From contig CAYNMD010000001.1 in NCBI GenBank assembly GCA_964398485.1, positions 5,072 through 69,071 of the forward strand: a stretch of 64,000 nt of DNA, written 5' to 3'. Positions 2,315 to 51,415 of the stretch are shown here, piece after piece. The stretch comes from an uncultured Bdellovibrionales bacterium (GTDB lineage: Bacteria; Patescibacteriota; Minisyncoccia; Moranbacterales; UBA1568). The position numbers and the translations under genes were made by a program. The notes beneath the pieces are model-generated. The model did not search any database. It had not been told where the DNA came from and saw nothing but the letters and a program-made list of their open reading frames with translations. The first letter of the stretch is position 1. Each line of letters opens with the position of its first letter.

Positions 2315-2355
2315 AATAGAGTCGGCAAAAACAGAAAACGATCAAAACGAAATTA

Positions 2356-20954: not shown

Positions 20955-21004
20955 GCTTGAAAGCTGATGGTATTTGTGGTACTATCAGAACTTGTATATT
21001 TTTT

Positions 21005-23593
21005 ATGACAGAGAAGAAAAAAGGTACTAGAAAAAGCATTGAACCAATAGATGAAATTATCGTCAAAGGGGCTCGGACGCATAATCTCAAAAATATTACC
21101 GTTTCGATGCCACGTAATAAGATGGTGGTGTTTACGGGACTTTCCGGATCAGGGAAGTCATCGCTTGCTTTTGACACCATTTTTGCTGAGGGACAAAGGC
21201 GGTATGTCGAAAGTCTTTCGGCCTACGCTCGGCAATTTCTCAACACCATGCAGAAGCCAGATGTGGATGAAATTGTGGGGCTTTCGCCAGCTATTTCTAT
21301 TGATCAGAAATCAGCGAGTCGGAATCCTCGTTCTACCGTAGCTACCGTAACGGAAATATATGACTATCTGCGAGTCCTCTATGCTCGGCTCGGGCGGCCA
21401 CATTGTCTCGAATGTGGACGGGAAATTAGCAAACTCTCGAGCGAGGAGATGCTTGAGGTGGTCAAAGAAAAAGTCCATGCACTGCTTAAGGATCCCAAGA
21501 AACAAGATCTGCCGGTAATGGTCCTGGCGCCGGTGGTGCGAGGGCGTAAAGGGGAGTACTATCAAATGCTGTACCATGCGCTTGGTCGTGGGTTTACCTC
21601 TATCTATCTTGATGGAGCAAGGAAGAGTCTCCGTGAACAGGTGGTCCTCAAGAAAAATTTCAAACACAATATTGATCTCGTGGTCGACGAATTTTTGGCT
21701 CGTGATTTTAAGCAGTATCAGGCTGATACCGAAGTACGTCTCTCGGAATCAGTTCAGCGAGCACTTGAAGAGGCAGAGAATATCGTCAAAATTCGAATTG
21801 GGGAAGAAGAGTTTCTTCTCTCAGCCAAGTTTACTTGTCCGTATGATGGGTTCTCCTATCCCGAAGTAGAACCGAGACTGTTTTCTTTCAATTCTCCGTA
21901 TGGAGCCTGTCAGGCTTGTAATGGTCTTGGGACCAAGCATTTTTTTGGCGATGAGCCCTGTGAAGTATGTAATGGGACTAGACTAAGGGAAGAGGCCCAA
22001 CACATTCTTGTAGGTGGCAAGAACGTTATTGATCTTACTCGACTGACGACAGAGGCAGCCTATGACTTTTTTATTGAGCTCGATCTTACTGAACGGGAAA
22101 AACAGATTGCGGCGGTGGTCCTCCGTGAGATCGAGAGTAGACTGCAGTTCCTCCTCAATGTTGGTCTCAATTATCTCACTCTTGATCGACGTGCTAATAC
22201 GCTGTCTGGTGGTGAGGCCCAGCGCATTCGTCTCGCGAGTCAGCTTGGGTCACAACTGGTAGGAGCACTCTATGTGCTGGATGAACCAACTATTGGTCTT
22301 CATCAAAGAGATAATCAGCGACTTATCAAGACTCTCGAGGCTCTCAGGGATCTTGGTAATACGATTATTGTTGTTGAACATGATGAGGATACTATTTTTG
22401 CTTCCGACTATATCGTAGATATTGGTCCTGGGGCAGGAGTGCATGGAGGTGAGGTGGTAGTGGCGGGAGATTTGGAGACACTCCTCACTGCGAAAAAAAA
22501 TACTTCTGGTTCGCTGACACTGGCGTATCTCCGTGGTGAAGAAAAAATTCCTGTACCAGAACGGCGTACGAAGGATAAGGGGACAATTCGGATCCGGGGT
22601 GGCCGAGTTTTCAATATCAAGAATCTGAGTGTTGATGTCCCCCTGGGCCGATTTATAACCGTAACGGGAGTATCAGGATCAGGAAAATCTTCTTTCTTAT
22701 ACGAAATTCTCCATAAGAATTTACAGGCACGTTTTGATCGACGGTATAAATCCAATCGAGTGGAAAATTGCGACAGCATCACTGGGACGGAATACCTCTC
22801 ACGAGTAGTGATGATTGATCAGAGTCCGATTGGTCGCACCCCACGGTCCAATCCTGCTACTTATACCGGTGCCTTTGGCCACATTCGTGACCTGTTTGCG
22901 GCCACCGAAGAGGCAAGGGTCCGCGGCTGGAAACCAGGACGATTTTCCTTTAACCGCCCAGGGGGACGCTGTGAAACGTGTGAGGGCAATGGTTTTATAG
23001 CGGTCGAGATGCACTTTCTTCCAACGGTATATGTGCCATGTGATGTGTGTGATGGGAAGCGTTTTACCAAAGAGACACTGGAGGTGACTTACAAGGACAA
23101 GAATATTCACCAGGTGCTTGCTATGACGATCGAGGAAGCGTATCAATTTTTCTATGATATTCCAGCGATTGCCGATCGACTCAAGACACTCAATGAAGTT
23201 GGTCTCGGGTACCTTGAACTTGGTCAATCAGCGACGACACTTTCGGGTGGTGAAGCACAACGAGTAAAGATTGCGAGCGAACTCTATCGCCAGTCAACAG
23301 AACGAACGATCTATCTTTTGGATGAACCTACTATTGGTCTTCACTACGCTGATGTTCGAAAGCTCATTGAGATTCTCGATCGGTTGGTAGTTAAGGGCAA
23401 TACAGTGATGGTGATTGAGCACAATATGGATCTTATTAAGAGTGCTGATTATATTATTGATATTGGTCCAGAAGGAGGAGTGGGGGGTGGAAAGCTTGTC
23501 GCGAGTGGCACGCCTGAGGAAGTTGCTAAAGCACCTGGTTCACATACAGGGGAATATCTCAAAAAAGTGTTACGAGCGAGCCAGTCGAAATAG
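21005..23593 (+). CDS. uvrA: excinuclease ABC subunit A
   Basis: Two ABC modules ([18 protein letters not shown]; LSGGEAQR x2), zinc-finger Cys clusters, UvrB-binding-like segment ([14 protein letters not shown]); the tool ORF starts at an upstream TTG (20957), ATG at 21005 preferred. Confidence 0.9.
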
Positions 23594-23658: not shown

Positions 23659-24393
23659 TTGGTTACCAGAAGCGATATGTATATAAAAGTGGAAAATTTC
23701 TGGTCTCTTCTACTTCGGCCGGGACGTGCAGTCTCTGTTCCTGACGGAACTCTTGAAGCACTAAAATGGCTAGCTTTGGCCTCCATGTTTTATGATCATG
23801 GTGTGCGCTTGCTTGGGGCAGGAGGAACAGTTGGTAATGCAACTTCTTTTGGAAGACTTGCTTTCCCGCTGTTTGCGTTTATTATTGCCTATAATTTGTC
23901 ACGAGCTGGATCTGGGCGAGCGGTGTATGAGAGAACGATAAAACGACTGATCTCTTTTGGGCTATTATCTTTGCCAGTCACGTACTATTTTTTTGGGGCA
24001 GAATTTTTGAACATTCTTTTTACCTTCGCCTTGGCCATAGGGATTGTTTGGTTGTTGGAGGGATGGCGCTCTTGGTGGAGAGTATTACTCGCAGCAGGAA
24101 TTCTTGGATTCAGTCCTTGGGTGGAATATGGTTTCCCTGGCGTACTCCTTATTCTTAGTTTTTTTGCTTGGCAACGTTTCGGATTACGTATCCCCGTGAT
24201 CTTTTTTTTGGTTGGGGCGTTTTCACTACTGAATATGGCTAATGGAAGCTTCTGGGCTCTTGCCGTGTTACCAATTATTTGGTTGGCTTCGGTGATAAGT
24301 CTAGATATTAAACGATCAAAGTGGCTTTTTTATGTTGTTTACCCTTTGCATCTGTGGATACTGATGGGAATTCATTGGTTTTTTGCACGGTAG
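23659..24393 (+). CDS. polytopic membrane protein, TraX-family-like
   Basis: LKWLALASMFYDHGV near the N-terminus resembles the TraX LK.IA..M..DH motif; about 7 TM. Confidence 0.4.
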   Translation: MVTRSDMYIKVENFWSLLLRPGRAVSVPDGTLEALKWLALASMFYDHGVRLLGAGGTVGNATSFGRLAFPLFAFIIAYNLSRAGSGRAVYERTIKRLISFGLLSLPVTYYFFGAEFLNILFTFALAIGIVWLLEGWRSWWRVLLAAGILGFSPWVEYGFPGVLLILSFFAWQRFGLRIPVIFFLVGAFSLLNMANGSFWALAVLPIIWLASVISLDIKRSKWLFYVVYPLHLWILMGIHWFFAR

Positions 24394-37239: not shown

Positions 37240-38022
37240 ATGTGGAAATATTTCTTTGGAACTCTTTTTTTGGTGGGGTTTTTGGGAGCCTGGTTTTGGT
37301 TTGATCAAAAAAGTGACCATGTTCAACCGACGACTTTTGAAAACACCTATTCTCGTACTACGCCGGAAGAGACTTCGAAAAATGTAGAACCGATACCAGT
37401 GTCCCCCGTAGAGCCTCCGAAGCCAATCATCCAAGACATTGCGTATCCCGTTCCCTTTACCTCACAGGCTCCGACTGGGGAATGGAATTTGAGTGCGTTC
37501 CAAGACGGCTGCGAAGAAGCGTCGACCCTTATGGTGTGGATGGCCCGAGAGAAGAAAACGCTGACATCGGTAGAAGTAAAGGCCGAGCTCTTGGATATGG
37601 CTTCATTTCAGACGAAGATCATTGGCCATGGTGTGGATACAGATGTGAGTGATACCAATGCGTATCTCTTGAAGGAGTATTTTGGAATTACAGACGGAGA
37701 GGTGGTGTATGACTTCATGCTCGATGAGCTCAAAGAAGCAGTGATGAAGGGCATAGTAATCGTTCCTACTAATGGTCGGGCTTTACATAATCCCAATTTT
37801 ACGGCGCCCGGACCACTCCAGCACATGCTCGTCATCACGGGTTATGATGTGACAACCAAAGAATTTATTACCAATGATCCGGGAACAAGAAAAGGGGACG
37901 GATACCGATATCCAGAGCAAGTTTTGTTTGATGCTATTCGTGAATATCCAACTGGAAAGCACCTCCCTATCACCACCGAACGTAAAGCAATGATACTGAT
38001 TCCGTTCACAACGAAGGATTGA
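37240..38022 (+). CDS. secreted/anchored papain-like cysteine peptidase domain protein (Peptidase_C39_2-like)
   Basis: N-terminal TM; VPFTSQ...WNLSAFQDGCEEASTLMVW (Cys) and later HMLVITGYD (His) fit the C39-like fold. Confidence 0.45.
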   Translation: MWKYFFGTLFLVGFLGAWFWFDQKSDHVQPTTFENTYSRTTPEETSKNVEPIPVSPVEPPKPIIQDIAYPVPFTSQAPTGEWNLSAFQDGCEEASTLMVWMAREKKTLTSVEVKAELLDMASFQTKIIGHGVDTDVSDTNAYLLKEYFGITDGEVVYDFMLDELKEAVMKGIVIVPTNGRALHNPNFTAPGPLQHMLVITGYDVTTKEFITNDPGTRKGDGYRYPEQVLFDAIREYPTGKHLPITTERKAMILIPFTTKD

Positions 38023-38084
38023 TTTTTTGAGTATTTATGGTAGGGTAAGCCTATCGTTTTCCTGCTTACCATTGGAGGTTTCAC

Positions 38085-38447
38085 ATGGCTACTGAACGGA
38101 AGACTTTGTTTTTTGCTGAACCGATTACGACGGAAGCAGCTGAACGAATTGGTTCCTATCTTGCAGAGCGTCAGATCGCCTGCAACTGGCGTGAAGGTGT
38201 TGAAGATACCGAGGGAAAACCTCATCAAGGCTGGGACGGGCTTGATCTCAGGACAATGCGACTCATCCGGTCGATGCAGCGACAGGACACCCGAGTCCTT
38301 GTCGGTTACTGGGAACATGAGGATTCGGGTGGGGCCAGGCTGAAGTCAGCGAATTTCATCGTGATTACGGCACCTGGTCTCAAACTGCGTCGCTCAGCCA
38401 AATACAAGCAGGCTGCTGGGCAGATTCCGAAGCGAACCACTACCTGA
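38085..38447 (+). CDS. hypothetical protein
   Basis: 120-aa ORF; no domain. Confidence 0.35.
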   Translation: MATERKTLFFAEPITTEAAERIGSYLAERQIACNWREGVEDTEGKPHQGWDGLDLRTMRLIRSMQRQDTRVLVGYWEHEDSGGARLKSANFIVITAPGLKLRRSAKYKQAAGQIPKRTTT

Positions 38448-38518
38448 ATCTATGCCGGCCCTTAGGAAACCCTCGGGCCGGCACGATCATTTTTTGAGGA
38501 GTATATAATAGAAAGACT

Positions 38519-39262
38519 ATGGCAATAGTTCGATCGAGAAATATTTTTGACCCAGCGAGCGAGACAGCGTTTAAGTTGTCACGCTCCAAACTGGAACTCT
38601 TCCTCGAGTGTCCGCGGTGTTTTTATATTGATCGCAGGCTGGGCATTGGTCGGCCGACAGGGCCACCGTTTAATCTCAATAAAGCTGTGGATACACTCCT
38701 CAAGAAGGAATTTGATATTCATCGATCAGCGGGGACGCAGCATCCTCTCTTAGAAAAGTATGACGTTGATGTGCGGCCAGTGTCTCATGAAGAGCTCGAT
38801 ATTTGGCGGGAGAATTTTCAGGGTGTGCAATATCACCACCAGCCAACACATTTAATCATTACCGGTGCAATCGATGACCTCTGGATCAATTCTCGTGAGG
38901 AATATATCGTCGTAGATTACAAAGCAACCAGTAAGGATGAAGTAATTGATAAGCTCAATGATACTTGGCACCATCAGTATCGTCGTCAGATGGAAATCTA
39001 TCAGTGGCTCCTCCGAGCAAATGGCTATCGTGTTTCGCCAACTGGGTATTTTGTCTACTGTAATGCAGGCACAGATAAAACGGCTTTTGATGGGAAACTT
39101 GAATTCGATGTTCGTCTTATTGCTTATGAAGGGAATGATGATTGGGTGGAAGGGGTTATTTATCGAGCCAAAGAGTGTCTGATGGGAAGTGCTTTGCCTC
39201 AAGCCTCGCCTAATTGTGACTACTGTACTTTTGCTGAAGCGAGGGCAAGAGTTGAAAGGTGA
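38519..39262 (+). CDS. PD-(D/E)XK nuclease, Cas4/RecB-like with Cys cluster (standalone)
   Basis: IDDLW...EEYIVVDYK (D...E.K core), QxxxY-type C-terminus, Cys residues CPRC near the N-terminus and C...CDYC at the C-terminus as in Cas4 Fe-S nucleases. Confidence 0.6.
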   Translation: MAIVRSRNIFDPASETAFKLSRSKLELFLECPRCFYIDRRLGIGRPTGPPFNLNKAVDTLLKKEFDIHRSAGTQHPLLEKYDVDVRPVSHEELDIWRENFQGVQYHHQPTHLIITGAIDDLWINSREEYIVVDYKATSKDEVIDKLNDTWHHQYRRQMEIYQWLLRANGYRVSPTGYFVYCNAGTDKTAFDGKLEFDVRLIAYEGNDDWVEGVIYRAKECLMGSALPQASPNCDYCTFAEARARVER

Positions 39263-39330
39263 TAAAAAAAGCGCCGCGAGCCTGTTGGCTCTTGGTGCTT
39301 GAGGTGGTCTGAATGATGGTTTCCAACAGA

Positions 39331-39711
39331 TCAGATAAGTGCTGGTTGTTTCTGCTTCAGGCTTTTTCGTCTAGGACGTTGGGTAGGTGGAGTAGTTGCT
39401 TTTAGCAGCTGAGCGAGTGCGGGGGTTATCGGCCAACCGGAGCTGTTGTTAACTGAATCTATCTGGAGGTGTTCTCTGGCTGCTTCCAGCAGAAGGCCAG
39501 GCTTCACACTTGGATGTTGCCGGAGTCTACCACATTCTGCTTTCACTGTACGGAAGTTCGTACTCAAGCTTCCATCGTAATTTGCGATCAGTATTGAAAT
39601 TGCTCCGCCTAAAGCAAAACCTTTTCGGCGTTCCAGGATAGTTTTCTGCTGGAACAAAATGAGGGCTTGCAGTGCGATCACACGAACAGCATTAGCGCTG
39701 AGATGGGCCAT
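39331..39711 (-). CDS. hypothetical protein
   Basis: 126 aa; perfect SD AGGAGGT 6 nt upstream of the ATG; no family recognised. Confidence 0.5.
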   Translation of the reverse strand: MAHLSANAVRVIALQALILFQQKTILERRKGFALGGAISILIANYDGSLSTNFRTVKAECGRLRQHPSVKPGLLLEAAREHLQIDSVNNSSGWPITPALAQLLKATTPPTQRPRRKSLKQKQPALI

Positions 39712-39797
39712 TGCCTACCTCCTGTAGTTTGGAAATTTACTGATTGATATTATATACACTTTACATTTATTAGTCAAGATGTTAGAATGGAGCGCGT

Positions 39798-41069
39798 ATG
39801 ACTCATCCTTGGATCAAAAAAGTAAGTATTGCGAATTTTCTCAAAGAAAACCCGTTGCCGGAAATGCCGGGGGTGTATTTTTTCTTGGATCAAAAGGACA
39901 CAATCCTCTATATAGGGAAGGCGACAGTACTCGCTGATCGAGTGAAGAGTTATTTTGGTGATGACCTCGATGCTGCGCGCGGACCAAAGCTTGTCCTCAT
40001 GCGAGAGCGAGCGACACAGATTGCTTGGTGGCCACTCGACTCAGTTCTCGAAGCGCTTCTTCTTGAGGGTCAACTTATCAAAAAGTACCAGCCAGTTTTT
40101 AATACCGATGCCAAAGACGATAAAAGTTATAACTATCTCGTGATTACTGATGAGGCCTTTCCGAGGATCTTGGTGGCGCGTGAGCGAGATATTATCGCTG
40201 GAAAGATTTCTTACAAAATAAAAGAACAGTTTGGACCGTATCCACGAGGAGGAGCACTTCAGACAGCTCTCAAAATTGTGCGGCACATTTTTCCCTATCG
40301 GGATAAATGTATTCCCTACACCGAAATCAGTGAAGGAGAACGCTCTCGGATAAAGCCTTGTTTTCATGCACAGATCGGCCTTTGTCCGGGGGTATGTATC
40401 GGAACTATGACCAAAACTGATTATCGGAAACAGGTGCGACGTATTAGTCTGTTTTTTTCAGGCAAGAAAGCAGACCTGGTGAAACGACTGGAGAAGGAAA
40501 TGCATATGGCGGCTAAGGCACTTCAGTTTGAAAAGGCGAGTGAAATCAAAAAACTTTTGTTTGATCTTGGTCATATTCGTGATGTAGCGTTGATGAAAGC
40601 TGATCGAGATGAAAGTTCAGCAGCTCGAATCGAAGCTTATGATGCCGCTCATTTTCAGGGGGGAGCAAGTGTGGGAGTGATGACGGTAGTGCAGCATGCT
40701 ATTGTCAAAAAAAGTGAGTATCGACTCTTTAAGCTCCGCGGCGAACACAATGGGAATGATCTCTCGGCTCTGGAAGAAATTTTGACGAGACGTTTTGCTC
40801 ATAAGGAATGGACACTTCCTGAGCTGGTGGTAGTGGATGGAGCACTCCTTCAGTCGGAAGTAGCAGCCAAGGTTTTAAAACGGAATAAGTTAACTATCCC
40901 GATTGTGGGGGTGGTCAAAGATGAGAGGCATCGACCCAAGAAGGTGATTGGTCCACGCTCACTGGTGAAGCGATTTGAACAGGATATTCTCTTGGCGAAT
41001 GCTGAGGCTCATCGCTTTGCTATTGGCTTTCATCGTAAGAAAAAGCGTGAAGCATTTCTTTTGGGGTAA
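39798..41069 (+). CDS. uvrC: excinuclease ABC subunit C, short form (GIY-YIG + UVR + RNase H-like endonuclease domains; no C-terminal HhH)
   Basis: GVYFFLDQKDTILYIGKA GIY-YIG, UVR motif (LEKEMHMAAKALQFEKASEIKKLL), C-terminal EAYDAAHFQG...VVDGA endonuclease domain; 423 aa versus about 600 for canonical UvrC. Confidence 0.85.
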   Translation: MTHPWIKKVSIANFLKENPLPEMPGVYFFLDQKDTILYIGKATVLADRVKSYFGDDLDAARGPKLVLMRERATQIAWWPLDSVLEALLLEGQLIKKYQPVFNTDAKDDKSYNYLVITDEAFPRILVARERDIIAGKISYKIKEQFGPYPRGGALQTALKIVRHIFPYRDKCIPYTEISEGERSRIKPCFHAQIGLCPGVCIGTMTKTDYRKQVRRISLFFSGKKADLVKRLEKEMHMAAKALQFEKASEIKKLLFDLGHIRDVALMKADRDESSAARIEAYDAAHFQGGASVGVMTVVQHAIVKKSEYRLFKLRGEHNGNDLSALEEILTRRFAHKEWTLPELVVVDGALLQSEVAAKVLKRNKLTIPIVGVVKDERHRPKKVIGPRSLVKRFEQDILLANAEAHRFAIGFHRKKKREAFLLG

Positions 41070-41132: not shown

Positions 41133-43976
41133 TTGTCTTTTTTCTTAGCGCTTCCAGTCCTGCTTATGCCTACGAGTCACGGCAAAAAGAATGTCATTGA
41201 AATTCGGGGAGCTCGGGTCAATAATCTCAAAAATATCGATATCGATATCCCGCGTGATGCCTTTGTCGTCGTGACGGGACTGTCGGGATCAGGGAAATCA
41301 TCACTCGCTTTTGATACGTTGTATGCGGAGGCAAACCGACGTTACGTCGAGAGTCTCTCTTCGTATGCTCGGAATTTTATGGAGGGATACGACAAACCCG
41401 ATGTCGATTCCATCAAGAATCTCTCCCCAGCCATTTCGATCGATCAAAAAAGTGTATCGAGGAGCCCACGATCAACAGTGGGTACTATGACTGAGGTGTA
41501 TGATTACCTCCGGATTCTCTTTGCTAAAGTCGGAACCCCGTGTTGCCCAAGTTGTCACCAGATTTTGTCACGCACCTCGCCGTTAGTTATCTTGGAGCGC
41601 CTGCTTCTTTTGCCAGCAGAGTCCAATGTAGCGGTGCTGGCCGAAAACAAGCAGTGTGAAGGAAAGACACTTGGTGATATGCTCGATCTTATTTCTGATT
41701 GGGGATACGTACGAGTGTTGTGGAAGGATGAGATGTTTCTTATTAGTGAATTGAGATTGCGAGCAAATCTCAGTGAACGAGGTCCTATTGCTATTGTGGT
41801 TGATCGCTTTAATCTTGATCCAGCTCGGCCTGATAAGGAGCGCATACTGGATTCTCTTCACTCAGCTTTTCATAGCGGCGAAGGGATTTTGAAAATCCGA
41901 GTAGACGGGGAATATTGGCATACCTTTTATGAAAAGTTTCGTTGCGAAAAATGTCAGATAGAATTGCCAGAATTTACCCCGGCTCATTTTTCTTTTAATA
42001 ATCCAGAAGGCGCCTGTGGGCATTGTGGTGGCCTCGGGGTGACACTTAAGTTTGATCCGAAGCTAGTGATCCCCAACGAAAATCTTTCATTGGCCGAAGG
42101 TGCTATACGTCCCTGGAGTAAAATGAATGGCGGTCGTGGAGGCAATCATGGCCCCTATCTTATTTTGGAAGCAGTAGCTAAGCGTGAGAAGATTCCGCTC
42201 AATGTTCCAATCAAAAAACTATCAGCCAAGCAGAAACAGTTTCTACTCTATGGTGAAACAAATACCACAAAGGATGGGGTATTTACTGGAGTTATTGGGA
42301 TGCTGGAAGAAAAGTATCAAGATACCAAATCTGATCACTTACGAGGAGAAATTGAGACTTATATGTACACGGAGACTTGTCCTGATTGTCGAGGGAAACG
42401 TCTCAAACCGGCATCGTTATCAGTCTTGGTAGCTGATCAATCGATAGACCAGATTGTTGATCAAAGTGTGGAACTCCTTCTTGAGTGTTTTGATAAGCTC
42501 AAAACAAAATTGTTGACTGATGGTCACCCTCAGAATTTGGTGGATACTTTATTTCAGGAAATGGATACAAGGCTCTCGGCGGTTGATAAAGTTGGTCTGG
42601 GGTACCTGACTCTTTCTCGAGGAGCGGATACTCTTTCGGGTGGCGAGGCTCAACGAATTCGACTTTCGGTACAAATCAAGTCAGGACTTTCCGGTATCAT
42701 CTATGTTTTGGATGAGCCATCAGTAGGTCTTCATAGTCGAGATACAGATCGTCTCATTAGGGCTCTCGATGAACTTCGAGGTGCTGATAACTCGCTGGTG
42801 GTTGTTGAGCATGATGTAGCTATTATGCGTAAGGCTGACTGGATTATTGATCTAGGTCCCGGTGCTGGTAAGGAGGGTGGCGAAATAATTTTTTCTGGCC
42901 CCCCAGAGAAGCTTTTCAAATCAAAAATTCTTACCGGCGAGTACCTTTGTGGGAAGCGTTCGGTTGTTGAGCCTGCCAAACCTCGTAGTGGTAATGGAAA
43001 CAATCTTGTTATAGTAGGGGCTACTGAACATAATTTGCAGGGGGTAACAGTAGAAATTCCTCTAGCAAAATTTATTGCTGTAGCTGGTGTCTCTGGTTCT
43101 GGGAAATCAACCTTGGTCCATGATATTCTGGCTCGCGCTCTGGCAAAGCGCTTTTATCAAGCTAAAACTCCCCCGGGTGCCCATCAAGAGATTTGTGGTC
43201 TAGAACATATAGATAAGGTGATTACGGTGAATCAGGATCCGATTGGTCGTACCCCCAGATCGAATGCTGCTACGTACACAGGAGTATTCGGCCATATTCG
43301 TGAGGTGTTTGCTGATACGCCAGAGGCCAAAAAAGAACGTTATACTGCGAGTTCCTTTAGTTTTAATATGCGAGGTGGACGATGTGAGATCTGTCAGGGA
43401 GGAGGATTGAAGAAGATTGAGATGTATCTTTTGCCTGATGTCTATATTCCTTGTGAGGCATGCAGCGGAACGCGCTATAACCAAAAAACTCTCTCACTAC
43501 AGTATCGAGGAAAAAATATTGCAGAAGTTTTGAGCATGACCGTAACCGAGGCAAGGGGATTCTTTCTCGACCAACCAATGATTGAGGAAAAACTCAGAGT
43601 GCTTGAGGAGGTTGGATTAGGTTATTTGGTGCTGGGACAGAGTGCCCCAAATCTTTCTGGTGGCGAGGCTCAACGTATCAAGCTCGCTACTGAACTTGCT
43701 CGAAAATCAACTGGCAATACACTGTATATCCTTGATGAGCCTACGATCGGTCTTCACTTTGAAGATGTGCGGAGATTGCTTGAGGTCTTGAATGCATTGG
43801 TTGATCGAGGCAATACAGTCTTGGTTGTGGAGCATAATATAGATGTTATTCGAGCGGCTGACTGGGTGATTGAGATGGGTCCAGATGGCGGGTCGCGTGG
43901 TGGACAAGTCTTGTTCTCTGGTACGCCAGATAAATTGAAGAAAATAAAAAATAGCCCTACCGCCAAGTATCTCTAA
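41133..43976 (+). CDS. UvrA paralog (second full-length excinuclease ABC subunit A-like protein)
   Basis: Two ABC modules, zinc-finger cysteines, long insertion domain; divergent from the uvrA at 21005. Confidence 0.85.
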
Positions 43977-43984
43977 AAAATAGT

Positions 43985-44902
43985 ATGCTCTCAAAATTTG
44001 TCTTAGCAACGATTGTTTACTACGACACGCTCGAGTATCCGATGACAGCATTTGAGATGTGGAAGCATTTGCTTATCCCTGATGGGGTTACCAATATTCC
44101 CAAGGCGTCCCTCCGAGCTATTGAACAAACACTAGAGTCGCTCCAGTCCCGCGGTTCGGTGGAACAACATCATGGTTTTTGGGTATTGCCTCGCCGTGGG
44201 AAGCTCGTTTTGGATCGGATTCAGCGAGAAAAACGAGCAGTAGAAAAAATAAAACGAGCAGTAAAACTTATCCGGCGGTGTAGCTGGATTCCTTTTATCA
44301 GGATGATTGCCCTCACAGGGAGTCTCTCTATGAAACAAGGTGATCGATTAAGCGATTGGGATCTTTTGGTGGTCATGAAGAGTGGGGCTATTTGGACTGG
44401 TCGTTTCTTGCTTACATTTTGGTTAACGATACTGGGTCAACGGCGGCATGGACAGCACATTACTGATAGGGCTTGTCTGAATTGCTATCTAGCTGATTCA
44501 GCGCTGGAAGTTCCTCTAAAAGACGTTTTTTCTTCTCATGAGTATCGATTTATGTATCCTGTTACGGGCGAAGACACCTTTCGATCTTTTGAATTAGCTA
44601 ATCGTTGGATGGCACGTTACCGTCCCCATTTTCTGCCAACGACAGTTCCATCGCTTTTTCTCACTTCACCACAAAGATGGGTAGGGATATCTCAGTCTGT
44701 CCTGGAGCAGTTGTTTACCCATCGATGGCTCGAAAAATATCTTGGGCAGTATCAAAGGCAGCGCATCGAACAAAATCCAAAAACCCAGATTTCTGGTGGG
44801 TTTATCTTGGCTAACGATGAAGCACTTGTTTTTCTTCCCGAACCAAAAGGCCCAAAAGTGTTTGACCGTTTTAAAGAGAGTCTTTCTCAGAATTCTTTGT
44901 AG
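43985..44902 (+). CDS. nucleotidyltransferase-fold protein (Pol beta-like GS...DxD motif)
   Basis: ALTGSLSMKQGDRLSDWDLLVV. Confidence 0.5.
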   Translation: MLSKFVLATIVYYDTLEYPMTAFEMWKHLLIPDGVTNIPKASLRAIEQTLESLQSRGSVEQHHGFWVLPRRGKLVLDRIQREKRAVEKIKRAVKLIRRCSWIPFIRMIALTGSLSMKQGDRLSDWDLLVVMKSGAIWTGRFLLTFWLTILGQRRHGQHITDRACLNCYLADSALEVPLKDVFSSHEYRFMYPVTGEDTFRSFELANRWMARYRPHFLPTTVPSLFLTSPQRWVGISQSVLEQLFTHRWLEKYLGQYQRQRIEQNPKTQISGGFILANDEALVFLPEPKGPKVFDRFKESLSQNSL

Positions 44903-45002: not shown

Positions 45003-46226
45003 ATGCCAAAGTTTTTGTATACAGCCAAACATGTTACCACGGGTGAAACCAGAGGCGGTGAAGTGATAGCTAAGGATGAGAAAGAGCTTGCTCAAGGGTT
45101 ACGATCTGAAGGGTATCTGGTGACATCAGTGGAGCAGACAGAAAAAGAAGCCGGCACTGTCCAGGTTCGTTTCATGGACCGGTTTCTTTCGGTGCCACTC
45201 AAAGAGAAAATGATTTTTGCAAGAAATCTGGCGGTTATGGTTTCGTCTGGTCTTACGGTCTCGAAATCTATTTATAATTTGAGCATCCAAACCCCGAATG
45301 CTCGTTTTAAGAAAATTCTTCAGAGTATTCACGAAGATGTTCAATCTGGGAAGCAGCTTTCTGAAGGGTTAGCTAAGTATCCTGGAGTGTTCAATGAACT
45401 GTTTGTAAACATGGTTTCTGTTGGTGAAATTTCCGGAAATCTGGAAGAAGTACTCGATATCTTGGCGCTTCAGCTTGAAAAAGAGCATGATCTTCTCTCC
45501 AAGGTGCGAGGGGCAATGACATATCCGGCAGTTATAGTAGTGGCTATGATTGGTATTGGAATTCTGATGCTTACCTATATCCTCCCAAAGATTACTCAAG
45601 TATTCGTTGATATGGATGTGGAGCTTCCCAAGACAACGCTCTTTATTATTGCAATGAGTAATTTTGTACGAGATCACTGGCTGATTACTATCGGTATCGT
45701 AGTTGGATCTGTCCTCTCAATTCGTTTTTTTGGAAAGACTGATACGGGGCGTCATTTTTTTCACTGGCTTTTCTTGAAATTGCCAGTGGTGGGTAATATC
45801 ATCATCAAGGTAAATTCAGCCCGTTTTGCCCGTATCTATAGTTCTCTTCTCAAGAGTGGTGTCTCAGTTGTGAATGCTTTGGCTATTGTGGCCAGGACGC
45901 TGGGGAATATTTATTACAAGGAGGCACTTACCGCTGGGATTGACGAAGTACAAAAGGGGACTGAACTCTCAAAGATAATTGAGAAGTACCCAAAAATTTT
46001 TCCAGTGATGGTAGCGCAAATCATTCAAGTAGGTGAGGAGACAGGGAAAACAGAAGACGTGCTCCAACGATTGGCAGAATTTTATGAAGAAGAGGTTTCT
46101 CAGATTACCAAGAATATGTCATCTATCGTGGAACCGATACTAATGCTCTTGATCGGTGGATCAGTTGGTTTTTTTGCTGTAGCGATGCTTCAGCCAATGT
46201 ATAGTGTTTTGGAAAATATCAAATAA
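45003..46226 (+). CDS. pilC: type IV pilus assembly platform protein PilC (GspF family)
   Basis: Two GspF repeats, 3 TM; family-typical motifs. Confidence 0.9.
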   Translation: MPKFLYTAKHVTTGETRGGEVIAKDEKELAQGLRSEGYLVTSVEQTEKEAGTVQVRFMDRFLSVPLKEKMIFARNLAVMVSSGLTVSKSIYNLSIQTPNARFKKILQSIHEDVQSGKQLSEGLAKYPGVFNELFVNMVSVGEISGNLEEVLDILALQLEKEHDLLSKVRGAMTYPAVIVVAMIGIGILMLTYILPKITQVFVDMDVELPKTTLFIIAMSNFVRDHWLITIGIVVGSVLSIRFFGKTDTGRHFFHWLFLKLPVVGNIIIKVNSARFARIYSSLLKSGVSVVNALAIVARTLGNIYYKEALTAGIDEVQKGTELSKIIEKYPKIFPVMVAQIIQVGEETGKTEDVLQRLAEFYEEEVSQITKNMSSIVEPILMLLIGGSVGFFAVAMLQPMYSVLENIK

Positions 46227-47640
46227 TTCTTTTTGCTTTGTGAAGCAATCAGATATCTTTCTTAAGAAGAATAAAAGAGAAGCGTCTCGAGGTTTTACCC
46301 TCATCGAGGCCCTGATGTTTCTTTTTCTTTTTTCTGTTATCACCCTTTCTTTTTATCAGACATGGATTTTGGCAACCGGACATATTGTAAATGTCAAGAG
46401 TCGATTGGGGGCAATTGCTGTAGCAAATCAGCAGATGGAGATAATTCGGAGTATTATTTTTGACGACATTGGTACCACTACGGGTATTCCGGTAGGGACG
46501 TTAGCTGAAAATCAAACTCTTTCTGTGAATAATGCTGTTTTTAACGTGCACACACTTGTACAATTTGTAGATAATCCGACAGATGGCACTCTTGGGGCGG
46601 GTACAGACATTGCTCCAAATGATTACAAACAAGTCACGATTACGGTATCTTGGGGAGGTGGCACTGATGCGGAGAAGATATCTACCACATCAATTTTTTC
46701 TCTTGATGGTGTTGAATCGGTAGCAGCAGGTACAGGAATTCTCTCCGTTAATGTACTCGATGGTACTGGTGCCGGGGTGTCGGGGGCATCTGTTCATATT
46801 GTAAACAGTAGTGTCGCGCCCGCTGTTAATATTACTGCTTCTACTGATACCAATGGTAATCTGACATTTCCTGGAGCTCCAGCTTCAGTTCAGGGATATC
46901 AGATTAGTGTAAGTAAGTCTGGTTATTATCCTAATACTACCTATCCACCGTATCCAACCTCTACCTTTAACCCAGTAAATATTCATACCACGGTAGTAGC
47001 TGGTAGTCTCACTGCTACTACTTTAGTGAGCGATGCTGATTCGGATATTAGTTTTCGAACACAGGATCCTTTTGGTACTGATGTTGCTGATGTTGATTTC
47101 GAGATTACCGGTGGATTAGTTATTGGTAACGAAATTTCCGATGCCTCACCAGTTTATGACTATACACAGTCACTCACCACTAATGGAAGTGGAGAAGAAA
47201 ATATCACCAATAGAAGTGCTGGAGTGTATACAGTAGTGCTTGATGCTAGTGAAACTACTTATAGGTTTCTTCGACTTTCTCCGGAGGAAGTCGATTTTGG
47301 GACTATTAACCTATCGGCAGGTACCAATAAATCAGTGACAATGGTCTTGGCTGACAAATCTTTCAGCTCTGCTTTGATCACAGCTGTAAATTCAGCTGAT
47401 AATCAACCTATTGCTGGGGCTAGTATCCGACTTACCAATGTTGGAATTGGTTATGATACAACCGTTACCACGGATACATATGGACAGGCTTTCTTTCATA
47501 CTGCGAACACCCCTTTAGTAGCAGGGACATATGATGTAGAAATTACTGCAGCAAGTTATGTCACTAAGACAGGAACGATAGATATTGCTGGGGACAAACT
47601 TGAGGAAAAACAGTTTGCGCTTGTGTTTATTCCAGGCTAG
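46204..47640 (+). CDS. large type IV pilin/pseudopilin with prepilin-type N-terminus and two CarboxypepD_reg-like beta-sandwich domains
   Basis: Class III signal ...RG/FTLIEALMFLFLF; probable real start at GTG about 46240; repeats SGASVHIVNSS...TDTNGNLTF / AGASIRLTNVG...TDTYGQAFF. Confidence 0.65.
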   Translation: MFWKISNNSFCFVKQSDIFLKKNKREASRGFTLIEALMFLFLFSVITLSFYQTWILATGHIVNVKSRLGAIAVANQQMEIIRSIIFDDIGTTTGIPVGTLAENQTLSVNNAVFNVHTLVQFVDNPTDGTLGAGTDIAPNDYKQVTITVSWGGGTDAEKISTTSIFSLDGVESVAAGTGILSVNVLDGTGAGVSGASVHIVNSSVAPAVNITASTDTNGNLTFPGAPASVQGYQISVSKSGYYPNTTYPPYPTSTFNPVNIHTTVVAGSLTATTLVSDADSDISFRTQDPFGTDVADVDFEITGGLVIGNEISDASPVYDYTQSLTTNGSGEENITNRSAGVYTVVLDASETTYRFLRLSPEEVDFGTINLSAGTNKSVTMVLADKSFSSALITAVNSADNQPIAGASIRLTNVGIGYDTTVTTDTYGQAFFHTANTPLVAGTYDVEITAASYVTKTGTIDIAGDKLEEKQFALVFIPG

Positions 47641-47653
47641 TCAAAAAATACCT

Positions 47654-48265
47654 ATGAGAATTGTTCGAGGGATGTCTTTTATAGAAATGATTGTAGCTAT
47701 TCTTATCATGCTACTCGGGATGAGCGGATTTACGTATCTTTTTGTGGATAGTTGGAGATCGAATAAGTTTATCATTGAGATGGGTAATGCTTCACTTCTT
47801 GCATCACGATCCGTAAACAATTTGGTTGCAGATTTACGAAAAGTTCGTCAGGCAGATAATGGTGACTATCCCATTGAGTCCGGCGATGATTTTGACATCA
47901 AAGTATATATTGATATTGATAATGATGGTGTTACTGAGAGAGTACATTATTACCTGCAGAGCGGATCTCTCTATCGGGGAGTAAGAGAGCCAGTCGGCAA
48001 TCTTCCGGTTAACTATCCCAATGGTGACGGTACCACTACTTTGCTGGCTAACTCCATCATCAATTCAAATACACAGCCTGTTTTTTCTTATTATAATGAT
48101 GAATATCCTTCTGACACAACGAATAACCCATTAGCGACCCCAGTAAATGTAGCTGAAGTAAAGATGGTGAAAGTACATCTTATGGTCAATATTGATCCAC
48201 TCAATGTTCCTGAGCATATCAATGTTGAATCATTTGCTGAGCTCAGGAATCTTAATGGTTACTAA
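47654..48265 (+). CDS. minor pilin/pseudopilin (prepilin-type N-terminal domain)
   Basis: MRIVRG/MSFIEMIVAILIMLL. Confidence 0.6.
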   Translation: MRIVRGMSFIEMIVAILIMLLGMSGFTYLFVDSWRSNKFIIEMGNASLLASRSVNNLVADLRKVRQADNGDYPIESGDDFDIKVYIDIDNDGVTERVHYYLQSGSLYRGVREPVGNLPVNYPNGDGTTTLLANSIINSNTQPVFSYYNDEYPSDTTNNPLATPVNVAEVKMVKVHLMVNIDPLNVPEHINVESFAELRNLNGY

Positions 48266-48274
48266 TGTATTTGT

Positions 48275-49696
48275 ATGAGAGTGGTACGTGGATCAGCTTT
48301 AGCCTATGGCCTTGTGATCATGACAGTAGTCATGATACTTCTGACGTCTATTGTGACTTTTGTAAGTTCGTATCTTCAATATAGCTTGAAACAGCGTGAT
48401 CGAGAACAGGCGTTACATATTGCCGAGGCCGGTATACACTTTTATCGCTGGTATCTTGCTCATCAACTCGACGGGCGGACAGCGAGTCAGATTCAGACTT
48501 TTTGGGATGCCGGGACGGCTTTGGGCCAATCAACGCCCTACGTCAGTTCCTTTGGCGGGGGTGAGTACTCAATCACAGTCACTCCTCCAAGCTCTGGACA
48601 AACAATTGTATACATAACCTCAACTGGTCAGACAAATCGCTATCCAGACCAGTCTCGAACCATTCGGGTGAGGTTGCGAAGGCCTTCTTGGAGTGAGTAT
48701 GCTGCACTTACTGATGAAGCAGTACGCTTTGGTACTGGGACAGAAGTTTTTGGGAAGCTTCATTCTAATAATGGGATTCGTTTTGATGGCCTTGCTCACA
48801 ATGTGGTCTCAAGTGCAGTTGATGAGTATAATGACCCCGATCATACTGGCGCCAATGAATTTGGTGTCCATACTCACGTTAATACTCCGCCATCATCAGG
48901 GATTAATAATGCTTTTCGTGCAGCCGAGGCTCCGCCGAGTACTGTTGCTACCAGGACAGATGTTTTTGAGGCAGGGCGCGTATTTCCTGTGGTCCCACTT
49001 GATTTCAGTGGCCTTCTCGGTGATTTGAGTTTGATGAAGAGTGAAGCTCAATCGGGAACGAATGGAAGCAGATATTTTGATAACACGAGACAGGGGAGGC
49101 ATATTATTCTGAAATCAAATGATACTTTTGATATTCGAACAGTGCAGAGTTTTAATGCGTCTACCAATGAAATCATCAATTATAATGGTGGTTGGTCAAA
49201 TTATCCGATTCCAAATGGGGGGGTTATTTTTGTAGAAAACAATGTGTGGCTTGAAGGAACGGTTAATGGTCGTAGAGTCACGGTAGTGGCAGCCAACCTT
49301 ATTTCTGCCTCACAAAAAACTGTATATTTAGGAAAAGATCTTCGATATACCAACTATGATTGCACTGATATGATTGGAGTTATTGGACAGAATGATGTTG
49401 AAGTTTATCGACAGAGTAATGACATCTTGCGCCTAGATGCTGCTCTTTTAGCGCAATCTGGTAGGGTGGGCAGGGCAAATTATACCGGAGCATATGCTAT
49501 TCGGGATACGATTACTGTCTATGGGTCGATTGTGAGTAATCAGCGGTATGGATTTGCTTGGGCAGATACGATGGGGAACCATGTTTCAGGATATCAGACT
49601 CGTAATTTATATTACGATAACAATCTTTTGTATTGTCCGCCGCCATATTTTCCTACAGGGACACAGTATGAACTTGATCTCTGGGAAGAGCTCTAG
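48275..49696 (+). CDS. PilX-like minor pilin/pilus-associated protein
   Basis: N-terminal hydrophobic helix plus ALHIAEAG motif of the PilX N-terminal domain; 473 aa. Confidence 0.5.
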   Translation: MRVVRGSALAYGLVIMTVVMILLTSIVTFVSSYLQYSLKQRDREQALHIAEAGIHFYRWYLAHQLDGRTASQIQTFWDAGTALGQSTPYVSSFGGGEYSITVTPPSSGQTIVYITSTGQTNRYPDQSRTIRVRLRRPSWSEYAALTDEAVRFGTGTEVFGKLHSNNGIRFDGLAHNVVSSAVDEYNDPDHTGANEFGVHTHVNTPPSSGINNAFRAAEAPPSTVATRTDVFEAGRVFPVVPLDFSGLLGDLSLMKSEAQSGTNGSRYFDNTRQGRHIILKSNDTFDIRTVQSFNASTNEIINYNGGWSNYPIPNGGVIFVENNVWLEGTVNGRRVTVVAANLISASQKTVYLGKDLRYTNYDCTDMIGVIGQNDVEVYRQSNDILRLDAALLAQSGRVGRANYTGAYAIRDTITVYGSIVSNQRYGFAWADTMGNHVSGYQTRNLYYDNNLLYCPPPYFPTGTQYELDLWEEL

Positions 49697-49776
49697 TGTT
49701 GTTTGATAAATGTTTGTAGCCAGGTGTGTTATTATAGTAAAGAAGAAAAAATAGAAAGCAAAAACAAACGCTCGGT

Positions 49777-50871
49777 ATGAGCTTGCTTTATAAGAAAATT
49801 TTTAATCTTTTCCCGCAGTCTTTTGGACTGGATCTCTCGGACCTTTCTTTAAAGGCTCTTTGGCTTGAACGTGAGGGAAAAGAAGAAATTGTGACAAGCT
49901 TTGGATCAGTACCCCTTTCTTTGGGGAGTGTTGTTGACGGTGAGATTATCAAAGAGGAAGTGGTGGTACAGGCTATACATGACATCATGGCAAAGACGGA
50001 GCCGTCGCCGATCCGTACGAAAAAGGTTATTTGTTCGCTTCCAGAAACAAAGGCTTTCTTACGTATCATTGGTTTACCTGAGATGGCTCCAGACGAGGTA
50101 AAAGAAGCCATTAAATGGGAGATCGAGGCAAATATCCCACTTACTCTTGATCAGGTTTATTACGATTATCAAATTCTTGAAAAGAAACTGATACCAGAAA
50201 AAGGGAAAATGAGTATTCTGGTGGTGGCGGTAGCTCGTAACATGGTGGATCAGTTTCAGGGGGTGCTTGAAAAAGCTGGTTTGGAAGTGGCTGGTTTTGA
50301 GACAGAATCAATTGCACAAGCTCGGAGTCTTCTTTCGGAGAAGGATGAGGATAAGACAAGGCTCATCATCGATATTGGCGATCGAAGAACAAGTTTTTTG
50401 GTAGCGATAGGTAATACTCCCTGTTTTACATCTAGTGTCCCGCTGTCTTCTCAAATGATTACAGATGCTATTTCCAAGGAAATGAAGATATCTTTTGATG
50501 AAGCAGAGGCAATGAAGATAAAATACGGTCTAGGATCCCTTGCTCTCAAAAGTCCTCTGTTTAAGGCTGCTCAACCGGTTTTGGAAAATATCGCTGTTGA
50601 AGTTGAGCGATCAATAAACTTCTATCTTTCGAATCTACGATATTCAAAGTCAATTGATAGTATTGTCCTCTGTGGTGGTGGGTCAAACATGAAAGGTCTA
50701 TTGCCGTATCTTACAAAACGTCTCAACCAGTCAATTGAATTTGGTAATCCTTGGGTTAATGTCCACCTGGGACGGATGCTCCCGCCGATTGATAGAGGAC
50801 ACTCAGTTCAGTATTCAACAGTGATCGGCCTCGCTCTGCGTGGTCTTGATGAGTATGCGGATTTTGCTTAA
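49777..50871 (+). CDS. pilM: type IV pilus assembly protein PilM (actin-like ATPase fold)
   Basis: GLDLSDLSLKAL..., IDIGDRRTSF, actin-fold motifs. Confidence 0.8.
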   Translation: MSLLYKKIFNLFPQSFGLDLSDLSLKALWLEREGKEEIVTSFGSVPLSLGSVVDGEIIKEEVVVQAIHDIMAKTEPSPIRTKKVICSLPETKAFLRIIGLPEMAPDEVKEAIKWEIEANIPLTLDQVYYDYQILEKKLIPEKGKMSILVVAVARNMVDQFQGVLEKAGLEVAGFETESIAQARSLLSEKDEDKTRLIIDIGDRRTSFLVAIGNTPCFTSSVPLSSQMITDAISKEMKISFDEAEAMKIKYGLGSLALKSPLFKAAQPVLENIAVEVERSINFYLSNLRYSKSIDSIVLCGGGSNMKGLLPYLTKRLNQSIEFGNPWVNVHLGRMLPPIDRGHSVQYSTVIGLALRGLDEYADFA

Positions 50872-51415
50872 TCTTCTTCCTAAAGAAAAACAACAAGAGC
50901 TTTCGCGGAAATTTTATTCTCGGTTTTTTCTTTGGCAAACTTGTCTCATATTAGTCCTGGTTATTTTTTATGCGACTGTTCTTGGGGGTATTTATTTCTT
51001 ACTCAATTATCAAGTGAAGGGAGCTCAATTGGCTCTGGATAGTTTCAATCAATACAATCAGGAGTCAAGGAAACTCACTGAATACCAAGAGGCTTTTCGA
51101 CAAGCCAATAACCTGAGTGCGGACATAAACCGATATTTGGATCAACATCATCAATGGGGAAAATTATTCTCCCTGCTAGAGAAACTAACCCCAGTAGGGG
51201 TATCTCTGACTGGTTTGAGTACTAAGGACTATACGGTTTCTGTCGCTGGGCGAGCTGATACTCGTGATCAGTTTTTGGCTTTTGAAGCAGCTCTTAAAGC
51301 GGCTGAGTGTACCAGTGATGTCAAAGTCCCGCTCTCTAATCTCTTTGCTCAGACCGAACTAGATTTTCAGATTGACTTTAATATCAAGAAGGAGTGTCTT
51401 TTGAATCGTAATTAG
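50855..51415 (+). CDS. PilN-like inner-membrane pilus assembly protein
   Basis: Short cytoplasmic N-terminus, one TM, periplasmic domain; position after pilM. Confidence 0.55.
   Translation: MRILLNLLPKEKQQELSRKFYSRFFLWQTCLILVLVIFYATVLGGIYFLLNYQVKGAQLALDSFNQYNQESRKLTEYQEAFRQANNLSADINRYLDQHHQWGKLFSLLEKLTPVGVSLTGLSTKDYTVSVAGRADTRDQFLAFEAALKAAECTSDVKVPLSNLFAQTELDFQIDFNIKKECLLNRN

Follow-up and report, generated by a model that had tools for sequence, protein, structure and literature searches.

What does a Cas4-like nuclease do outside a CRISPR locus, and do the genes beside it work with it? The question is raised by a 64-kb stretch of contig CAYNMD010000001.1 (hereafter the window, whose positions serve as coordinates throughout), from an uncultured bacterium deposited as Bdellovibrionales and placed by GTDB in the Patescibacteriota; the names of the homologs likewise point to a patescibacterial genome, close to Moraniibacteriota. 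The window carries a 247-aa nuclease ORF at 38519-39262 on the plus strand and, convergent with it, a 126-aa ORF (orf126) at 39331-39711 on the minus strand, followed by uvrC, uvrA and a gene for a 305-aa protein. An earlier note on this DNA had proposed that these genes might together form a DNA end-processing, repair or defence module. We favour, with moderate confidence, a different reading, in which the nuclease gene and orf126 are two independent, separately transcribed genes, the first encoding a stand-alone end nuclease and the second a clade-specific protein, set beside uvr genes whose order is inherited.

The nuclease and its family

The 247-aa protein matched PF12705 (PDDEXK_1) with 61.2 bits against a gathering cut-off of 22 (E = 1.9e-16), in agreement with its earlier description as a Cas4-like/RecB nuclease. 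The Cas4 models failed: PF01930 gave 15.9 bits where 22.7 are required, and TIGR00372 33.1 bits where 65 are required. The Cas4 profiles of PADLOC covered residues 20-240 with E values of about 1e-9, and the query carries an insert of about 80 residues relative to them. A PHROG of unknown function aligned with the nuclease over its full length (E = 1e-22).

Motifs were examined in an alignment of 26 diverse homologs, drawn from numerous candidate phyla and sharing 63-86% identity with the query, in which about 110 columns were invariant. These included the RecB motifs GAIDDLW (D119/D120), VVDYK (D133, K135) and RQMEIYQ (Q157, Y161), the third of which reads RQMxxYQW across the homologs; the IDDLW...VVDYK core quoted in the earlier note is thus fully conserved. 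The N- and C-terminal cysteine clusters that it had pointed out proved equally constant, C31 and C34, the core residue C181, and C233 and C236 being invariant, while C220 is conserved in about 90% of the homologs. The resulting pattern is CX2C...CX2C with an optional fifth cysteine and none after C236. In Cas4, AddB and EXO5, as known for SSO0001 and AddB, a single N-terminal cysteine is combined with a C-terminal CX2CX5C. Judged from the alignment, the pattern here is therefore 2+2 and not the canonical 1+3 of Cas4.

An AlphaFold (AF2) model of the nuclease had a pLDDT of 87.6. Searched with Foldseek, it matched AdnA, the Cas4 proteins Pcal_0546 and SSO0001, EXO5 and MGME1 with probability 1.00 and AddB with 0.98; E values were 1.5e-5 for AdnA, 3.8e-5 for EXO5, 9.3e-5 for MGME1 and 5.7e-4 for AddB, at TM-scores of just 0.4-0.5. 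Other matches were a DinG-associated nuclease domain, type I-C Cas4 and lambda exonuclease, and the best matches were all DNA-end nucleases. Searches of PDB chains with the nuclease sequence, by phmmer and by profile, returned spurious matches only. By its motifs and predicted fold, the protein falls within the PD-(D/E)XK superfamily, in the RecB/AddB/Cas4/EXO5 branch.

Within this branch it differs from each of the characterised enzymes. The best structural matches, the nuclease domains of AddB, AdnA/AdnB and RecB, belong to DNA-end resection nucleases with an iron staple; the window protein is a single 247-aa domain with no fused superfamily 1 (SF1) helicase, and no helicase gene is adjacent to it in the window. 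EXO5 and MGME1, eukaryotic exonucleases acting on 5' single-stranded DNA or flaps, are likewise single-domain proteins, comparable in size, whose active site is spanned by a helical arch, but they share only 12-15% sequence identity with it, and their organisms and pathways differ; MGME1 moreover has no metal cluster. CRISPR Cas4 (SSO0001, 4ic1; Pcal_0546, 4r5q; type I-C, 8d3l) has the same fold, RecB motifs and cysteines at both termini, whereas the window protein is longer, scores below the Cas4 cut-offs and has the 2+2 pattern, and its window holds neither cas1 nor cas2 nor a CRISPR. As the earlier note had stated, no CRISPR array was found in the 64-kb window by TRF and a direct-repeat scan, and no cas genes turned up among the window ORFs scanned with profile libraries.

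A Cas4-like RecB-family nuclease in a non-CRISPR context is what defines the solo-Cas4 or Cas4-like class already described in 2017, and on its sequence the window protein is a further member of that class. Solo-Cas4 is over-represented in small-genome bacteria belonging to the CPR (Candidate Phyla Radiation) and in DPANN and sometimes adjoins restriction-modification (R-M) genes (Hudaiberdiev et al. 2017, PMC5704561). The same study reported that pfam12705 members are not CRISPR-associated, described R-M links for the solo-Cas4 of DPANN archaea, and found UvrD-Cas4 fusions with type III R-M and with Dcm-Vsr. The Solo-Cas4 of Methanosarcina mazei is a [4Fe-4S] metal-dependent DNase (PMC12501428).

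The family is very large. At least 8000 protein clusters (at 90% identity) matched the query, and the top 120 listed were all at least 63% identical to it and all contained PF12705. Among the matches listed, relatives in species-representative genomes occupied at least 567 stretches. Members are 64-70% identical across Patescibacteria and occur in Nitrospirota and other phyla; carriers include complete Nitrospiraceae and Chromatiales chromosomes of 3.2 and 3.5 Mb and bins of Planctomycetota, Omnitrophota and Ignavibacteria. When the window was compared with a locus from a further branch of its closest clade (L084; surveyed loci are given by L numbers), the nuclease was the most conserved gene of the local block, at 86.5% identity, followed by a DEAD helicase (82.7%), UvrC (77.5%), a C39 peptidase (59.7%) and orf126 (33%). 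Two Nitrospirota loci (L058 and L062) have the same neighbours around the nuclease gene, and this common synteny suggests vertical inheritance there.

A phage origin of the family was considered and rejected, as just 9 loci were found among 2.9 million viral contigs. The records of several metagenome-assembled genomes (MAGs) with close homologs (L003-L005, L050, L081) are titled Bdellovibrionales, Gammaproteobacteria or Saccharibacteria; these titles look unreliable, because some of the chromosomes measure only 0.74-0.89 Mb and have a CPR-like gene content.

Defence genes upstream of the homologs

The neighbourhoods of the 80 best-scoring loci were examined, with neighbouring genes called by a simple longest-ORF heuristic, and 76 distant loci were used for counts of defence genes. 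Defence genes lay within five genes upstream of the homolog in at least 22 of the 76 and downstream in one, for which a binomial estimate gives about 3e-6 (519 upstream and 591 downstream genes were available for comparison). In these loci, the homolog stands at the 3' end of an R-M or other defence cluster. HsdR was upstream in nine of nine loci, one to five genes away and always on the same strand, and HsdM was upstream in all nine of its loci; Dcm was upstream in five loci and downstream in one. Other upstream clusters consisted of type III Mod and Res; of a PLD-SNF2 protein, an Eco57I/MmeI-type methylase and a HARE-HTH endonuclease; and of Dcm with R.HinP1I, an AAA_23 ATPase and a Ymh protein. 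Vsr was also found upstream, as was a NOV_C protein together with an SNF2 helicase.

Pfam searches of the flanking genes reproduced this asymmetry. The two genes immediately upstream yielded chiefly ResIII (9), DEAD (6), SWI2_SNF2 (5), Helicase_C (4), DUF87 (4) and type I R-M domains, while the two genes immediately downstream, which served as a control, yielded housekeeping families only, such as TspO, P-type ATPases, GSDH, GNAT and PBPs. Cas families were absent from the 25 commonest families flanking the 76 homologs on both sides, and a PIF1/RecD-like helicase lay near the homolog in only 7 of the 76 loci. The gap to the upstream gene measured 2-30 nt in several loci.

One MAG encodes two nuclease paralogs, 84% identical (L007, CAZVMH010000006; L008, CAZVMH010000002), each directly behind a different type I system, the HsdR proteins of the two being 26% and the HsdM proteins 27% identical. 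In two pairs of loci (L027 and L070; L033 and L050), the same downstream synteny is combined with different R-M types upstream. The polarity of these neighbourhoods argues that the nuclease is frequently co-expressed with restriction and defence systems of diverse kinds, as their accessory.

These results agree with the published solo-Cas4/pfam12705 picture and extend it. Compared with the solo-Cas4 proteins described, which are likewise stand-alone and lie outside CRISPR loci, the present proteins form a free-standing bacterial subfamily of about 250 aa that occupies the 3' end of defence clusters, those of type I, II and III among them, and is marked by the CX2C...CX2C pattern and the insert noted above. 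The UvrD-Cas4-like fusions (PMC5704561) share its Pfam family and kinds of partner, namely type III Mod/Res and Dcm-Vsr; the window subfamily lacks their helicase domain, and its partners also include type I and DISARM-like clusters.

In six of the surveyed loci (L022, L033, L050, L069, L072, L076), defence genes upstream are accompanied by a large serine recombinase five to eight genes downstream, which hints that some nuclease copies sit inside integrative islands. In the window itself, no defence gene was found with profiles for HsdR, HsdM, Dcm, the serine recombinase and the PIF1 helicase.

Layout of the locus and orf126

The features of the locus are as follows.

38085-38447, plus strand: orf120, the upstream neighbour; coding, family-less, context only
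38453-38495, plus strand: terminator-like hairpin and U-run, separating orf120 from the nuclease gene
38504-38509, plus strand: TATAAT, a -10-like box 9 nt 5' of the nuclease ATG, with no intervening Shine-Dalgarno (SD) sequence
38519-39262, plus strand: Cas4-like RecB-family PD-(D/E)XK nuclease, 247 aa, assigned from PF12705, the invariant motifs and AF2/Foldseek
39264-39298, minus strand: predicted intrinsic terminator of orf126; hairpin at 39271-39298, then minus-strand UUUUUUU at 39264-39270
39331-39711, minus strand: orf126, 126 aa, with third-position substitution excess; five predicted helices and a disordered basic C-terminal tail
39717-39723, minus strand: SD sequence AGGAGGT of orf126, 5 nt 5' of its ATG
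39749-39777, minus strand: predicted orf126 promoter, TTGACT-17-TATAAT, 11/12 matches
39760-39788, plus strand: predicted uvrC promoter, TTTACA-17-TAGAAT with TG, overlapping the orf126 promoter
39798-41069, plus strand: short uvrC, 423 aa, with GIY-YIG, UVR and RNase-H-like domains and no helix-hairpin-helix (HhH) domain; neighbour, not partner
41133-43976, plus strand: full-length uvrA, 947 aa, with PRK00349, UvrA_inter and UvrA_DNA-bind matches; neighbour, not partner

The nuclease gene and orf126 thus stand tail to tail, and orf126 is divergent from uvrC, after which come uvrA and the 305-aa gene (43985-44902). Upstream of the nuclease gene, an inverted repeat at 38453-38483 forms a perfect GC-rich stem of 9 bp with a fold energy of -24.1 kcal/mol (z = -4.4), and an equivalent hairpin with a T-run is present in L001-L003 and L084. 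Directly 3' of the nuclease stop codon, the hairpin within 39264-39298 has a fold energy of -16.7 kcal/mol (z = -5.2), and none of 200 shuffled sequences was equally stable. It is common to the nuclease gene and the convergent orf126, and is read as the terminator of orf126 because seven U follow on the minus strand. Located between these two hairpins, the nuclease gene appears to be its own transcription unit.

A TATAAT or TATACT box lies 8-9 nt 5' of the nuclease ATG in L003, L004, L005 and L084 as well. The uvrC -10 box ends 9 nt 5' of its ATG, and TTTACA, TAgaAT and the 8-9 nt spacing are kept in five lineages. With the -10-like box so close to the start codon that there is no room for an SD sequence, the spacing, seen in the window at 38504-38518 and 39783-39797 and conserved in relatives, suggests that the mRNAs of the nuclease gene and uvrC are leaderless. 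Unlike these two genes, orf126 has a 30-nt leader and a strong SD sequence. In L001-L003 and L084, SD-like AGGAGA, AAGGAG or GGGGG stands at the same site, and the GTCAA and TATA elements of the orf126 promoter are conserved in an alignment of five intergenic regions. The hexamers of both overlapping divergent promoters in the spacer between orf126 and uvrC are kept in five lineages.

The 126-aa gene on the opposite strand is real, as the earlier note had supposed, and its AGGAGGT is in place. Three of its orthologs are exactly 126 codons long, with 26/22/45, 17/21/46 and 23/27/48 substitutions at the first, second and third codon positions. It is indeed without a recognisable family, having no match in Pfam, NCBIfam or PHROG and a single insignificant one in PADLOC (E = 0.061). 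Just five clusters were found in 1.84 billion representatives and just nine in a set of 5.8 billion, and every member with available context is located between the nuclease gene and uvrC. The gene evolves fast. The structural model (pLDDT 79.6) consists of five helices and a disordered basic tail, and a structural search gave no meaningful neighbour. After the basic tail, the C-termini of family members read QPALI, QSVLI, QPTLI, QAVLI, QLALV, QQLQF, EALF and QAAFKF; these Q-x-x-[LF]-[IFV]-like ends bear a resemblance, to be taken as a lead and nothing further, to the beta-clamp (DnaN) binding motif QL[SD]LF. Judged by its predicted signals and fold, orf126 encodes a small, helical, clade-specific protein and has a strong promoter, an SD sequence and a terminator to itself, and our guess is that it may be a small DNA- or protein-binding regulatory factor.

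An RNA gene was considered for orf126 and for the GC-richer stretch 38022-38519 and rejected: Rfam gave nothing at gathering thresholds and, at E values up to 5, only two chance-level matches, to the MS2 hairpin and a Brucella small RNA, and by their codon-position statistics orf126 and orf120 are both coding. For orf120, the substitutions per codon position in three orthologs are 14/11/52, 16/12/66 and 20/20/74, indicating strong purifying selection; no family was found for it in Pfam, NCBIfam, PADLOC or PHROG. In other close relatives, the same slot holds unrelated small genes (116-143 aa), which points to rapid gene turnover upstream of the nuclease.

Farther along, the uvrC gene is short as described, 423 aa without the HhH domain; its linker is shortened, and its length is 423-442 aa in all close relatives. 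The adjacent uvrA (41133-43976) had been labelled UvrA2, which does not hold: the protein scores 1192 bits against PRK00349, where the equivalog cut-off is 1147, and has both the UvrB-interaction domain (PF17760 UvrA_inter, residues 153-257) and the insertion domain (PF17755, residues 308-408). As a "second copy" it was described accurately, since the window also contains a shorter uvrA at 20957-23593 (878 aa, near uvrB at 16142-18175); as a class II UvrA it was not. Both genes exceed the UvrA equivalog cut-off; identity between them is 47% in the C-terminal 542 residues, against 43% in the N-terminal part, and it is the shorter one that lacks the insertion (DNA-binding) domain, at about profile positions 330-400. 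The name nucleotidyltransferase for the gene at 43985-44902 found no match in Pfam, NCBIfam, PADLOC or PHROG models.

Further observations concern the surroundings. The 305-aa protein contains a nucleotidyltransferase-like G-S...D-x-D motif, LTGSLSMKQGDRLSDWDLLVV, and its gene is conserved downstream of uvrA in relatives with 48-87% identity. It is followed at 45003-51415 by a type IV pilus cluster (T2SSF, PilM, PilX-like). At the left end of the window (104-3522) lie topA and dprA; such a competence and pilus setting is usual in CPR genomes. Directly after the shorter uvrA, a 244-aa protein (23659-24393) scored 120.7 bits with a TrbP conjugal-transfer subfamily model whose cut-off is 206 bits.

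Role of the nuclease

Going by its motifs and modelled fold, the 247-aa protein is most likely an active metal-dependent nuclease acting on DNA ends. By analogy with AddB, Cas4 and EXO5, a metal cluster on C31/C34 and C233/C236 would tie the N- and C-terminal helices around a channel, through which a free single-stranded DNA end, most likely the 5' end, would be threaded for cleavage with Mg2+ or Mn2+. The protein would be a generic DNA-end processor and not a CRISPR component. Because homologs are very often the last, tightly spaced gene of R-M or defence clusters, it would probably degrade or resect the double-strand ends made by adjacent defence systems; equally, where an organism has neither RecBCD nor AddAB, it could resect breaks in the chromosome. 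In the genome of the window, its gene is a solitary one amid housekeeping genes.

The count of defence genes, at least 22 loci upstream and one downstream, leads us to favour a generic end-processing role that is often recruited for defence, and the strong conservation, together with the solitary position in about 70% of loci, points to a general role that defence systems exploit. The end-processing or defence role proposed in the earlier note therefore stands as the best reading of the fold matches and family neighbourhoods, though not as part of a module linked to uvr genes.

Several points weigh against this interpretation. Conservation as strong as this is more in keeping with a core function than with an arms race, and about 70% of the distant loci, as well as the window itself, show no defence gene beside the nuclease. 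The defence link may reflect a recruited housekeeping enzyme or an insertion hotspot and not the main role. The survey rests on the 80 best-scoring loci and on simple longest-ORF gene calls. The substrate, polarity and metal (Fe-S or Zn) of the nuclease are all assigned by analogy, and the CX2C...CX2C pattern is equally typical of zinc sites.

The strongest competitor, which we regard as a serious possibility though clearly the less probable one, is that the nuclease is purely a housekeeping enzyme of recombinational repair or replication, resecting 5' ends or removing 5' flaps in small genomes lacking RecBCD/AddAB, and that R-M cassettes merely tend to be inserted upstream of it. Such a role would suit the extreme conservation and wide distribution of the family, its stable synteny in the two Nitrospirota loci, and its structural neighbours EXO5, MGME1 and AddB, which are repair or replication enzymes; the two pairs of loci with different R-M types upstream also look like cassette turnover at one site. 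Against it, the defence genes stand strictly upstream, on the same strand and with gaps of 2-30 nt, which suggests co-transcription and not random insertion. Nor would a housekeeping gene be expected to be duplicated along with R-M cassettes, whereas the two paralogs found in a single MAG each follow a type I system of their own.

More tentatively, and with less confidence again, the 250-aa subfamily may be a common, interchangeable end-processing subunit that many unrelated R-M and defence systems share, whether type I, II, III or DISARM-like, both in Patescibacteria and in other phyla, and that relies on an unusual CX2C...CX2C metal staple. After restriction, the subunit might then do in organisms without RecBCD/AddAB what RecBCD does in E. 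coli. In the clade of the window, orf126, with its clamp-binding-like C-terminus and a promoter that overlaps the one of uvrC, might be a novel small regulator by which the nuclease or UvrC is joined to the replication clamp.

It is improbable that the nuclease degrades DNA imported by competence for nucleotide salvage in an organism unable to make nucleotides. Patescibacteria generally depend on scavenged nucleotides, and both dprA and type IV pilus genes (T2SSF, PilM, PilX-like) are present in the window. There is, however, no conserved adjacency to competence genes, T2SSF lying some way off and in only a few loci; large genomes of free-living organisms also have members of the family, and salvage would leave its link to R-M genes unexplained.

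We consider it very unlikely that the nuclease, orf126, the short UvrC, UvrA and the 305-aa protein jointly form a repair or defence unit. In its favour, the order C39 peptidase, small ORF, nuclease, orf126 and uvrC is kept throughout the closest clade, with uvrA next in most members, even where orf126 has fallen to 33% identity. The terminator-like hairpins, the separate promoters and the intervening gene on the opposite strand speak against a unit of this kind. When the window proteins were searched by tblastn against 82 loci, adjacency of nuclease and uvrC was limited to the closest clade, in which the nuclease is at least 81% identical (L001-L005 and, as a further branch with the same gene order, L084-L086). 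Elsewhere, uvrC occurred within 10 kb of the nuclease in 1 of 77 more distant species (L039, at 3 kb), and in just one further distant species (L054) a UvrA fragment lies where the 10-kb locus ends. Even in the closest clade, a radical-SAM gene replaces uvrA in L001. De novo clustering of recurrent neighbours in the 82 loci yielded no uvr gene and no partner cluster in more than 9 loci. In the window, the distance to uvrB and the second uvrA is 17-22 kb; excision repair is therefore not centred on this locus. The earlier note had itself held that the adjacency would be incidental if the genes did not co-occur in other genomes, and with co-occurrence confined to one clade it is to be regarded as such: the proximity of uvrC and uvrA is an inherited gene order in one clade, that is, local synteny and not a functional module.

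Finally, that the protein is a genuine CRISPR adaptation Cas4 serving an array and cas1-cas2 elsewhere in the genome is scarcely credible, for although Cas4 profiles are its best named matches in the defence library and the Joint Genome Institute (JGI) labels homologs COG1468 Cas4, its scores fall below all curated cut-offs, its cysteine pattern is unlike that of Cas4, neither the window nor the 25 commonest families flanking the homologs include Cas genes, and proteins with PF12705 reportedly have no association with CRISPR (PMC5704561).

On the reading of two independent genes, annotation of the locus as a module for repair or defence should be avoided, and the uvrC/uvrA neighbourhood is uninformative on function. 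The nuclease is an ordinary member of a very large conserved family, and the small gene is a clade-specific orphan. To our knowledge, CPR/Patescibacteria are mostly without CRISPR and, reportedly, without RecBCD. What matters about the nuclease is that its family is very large, that few genes of the local block are under constraint as strong, and that its neighbourhoods are polar, the nuclease gene standing last in defence clusters of many kinds.

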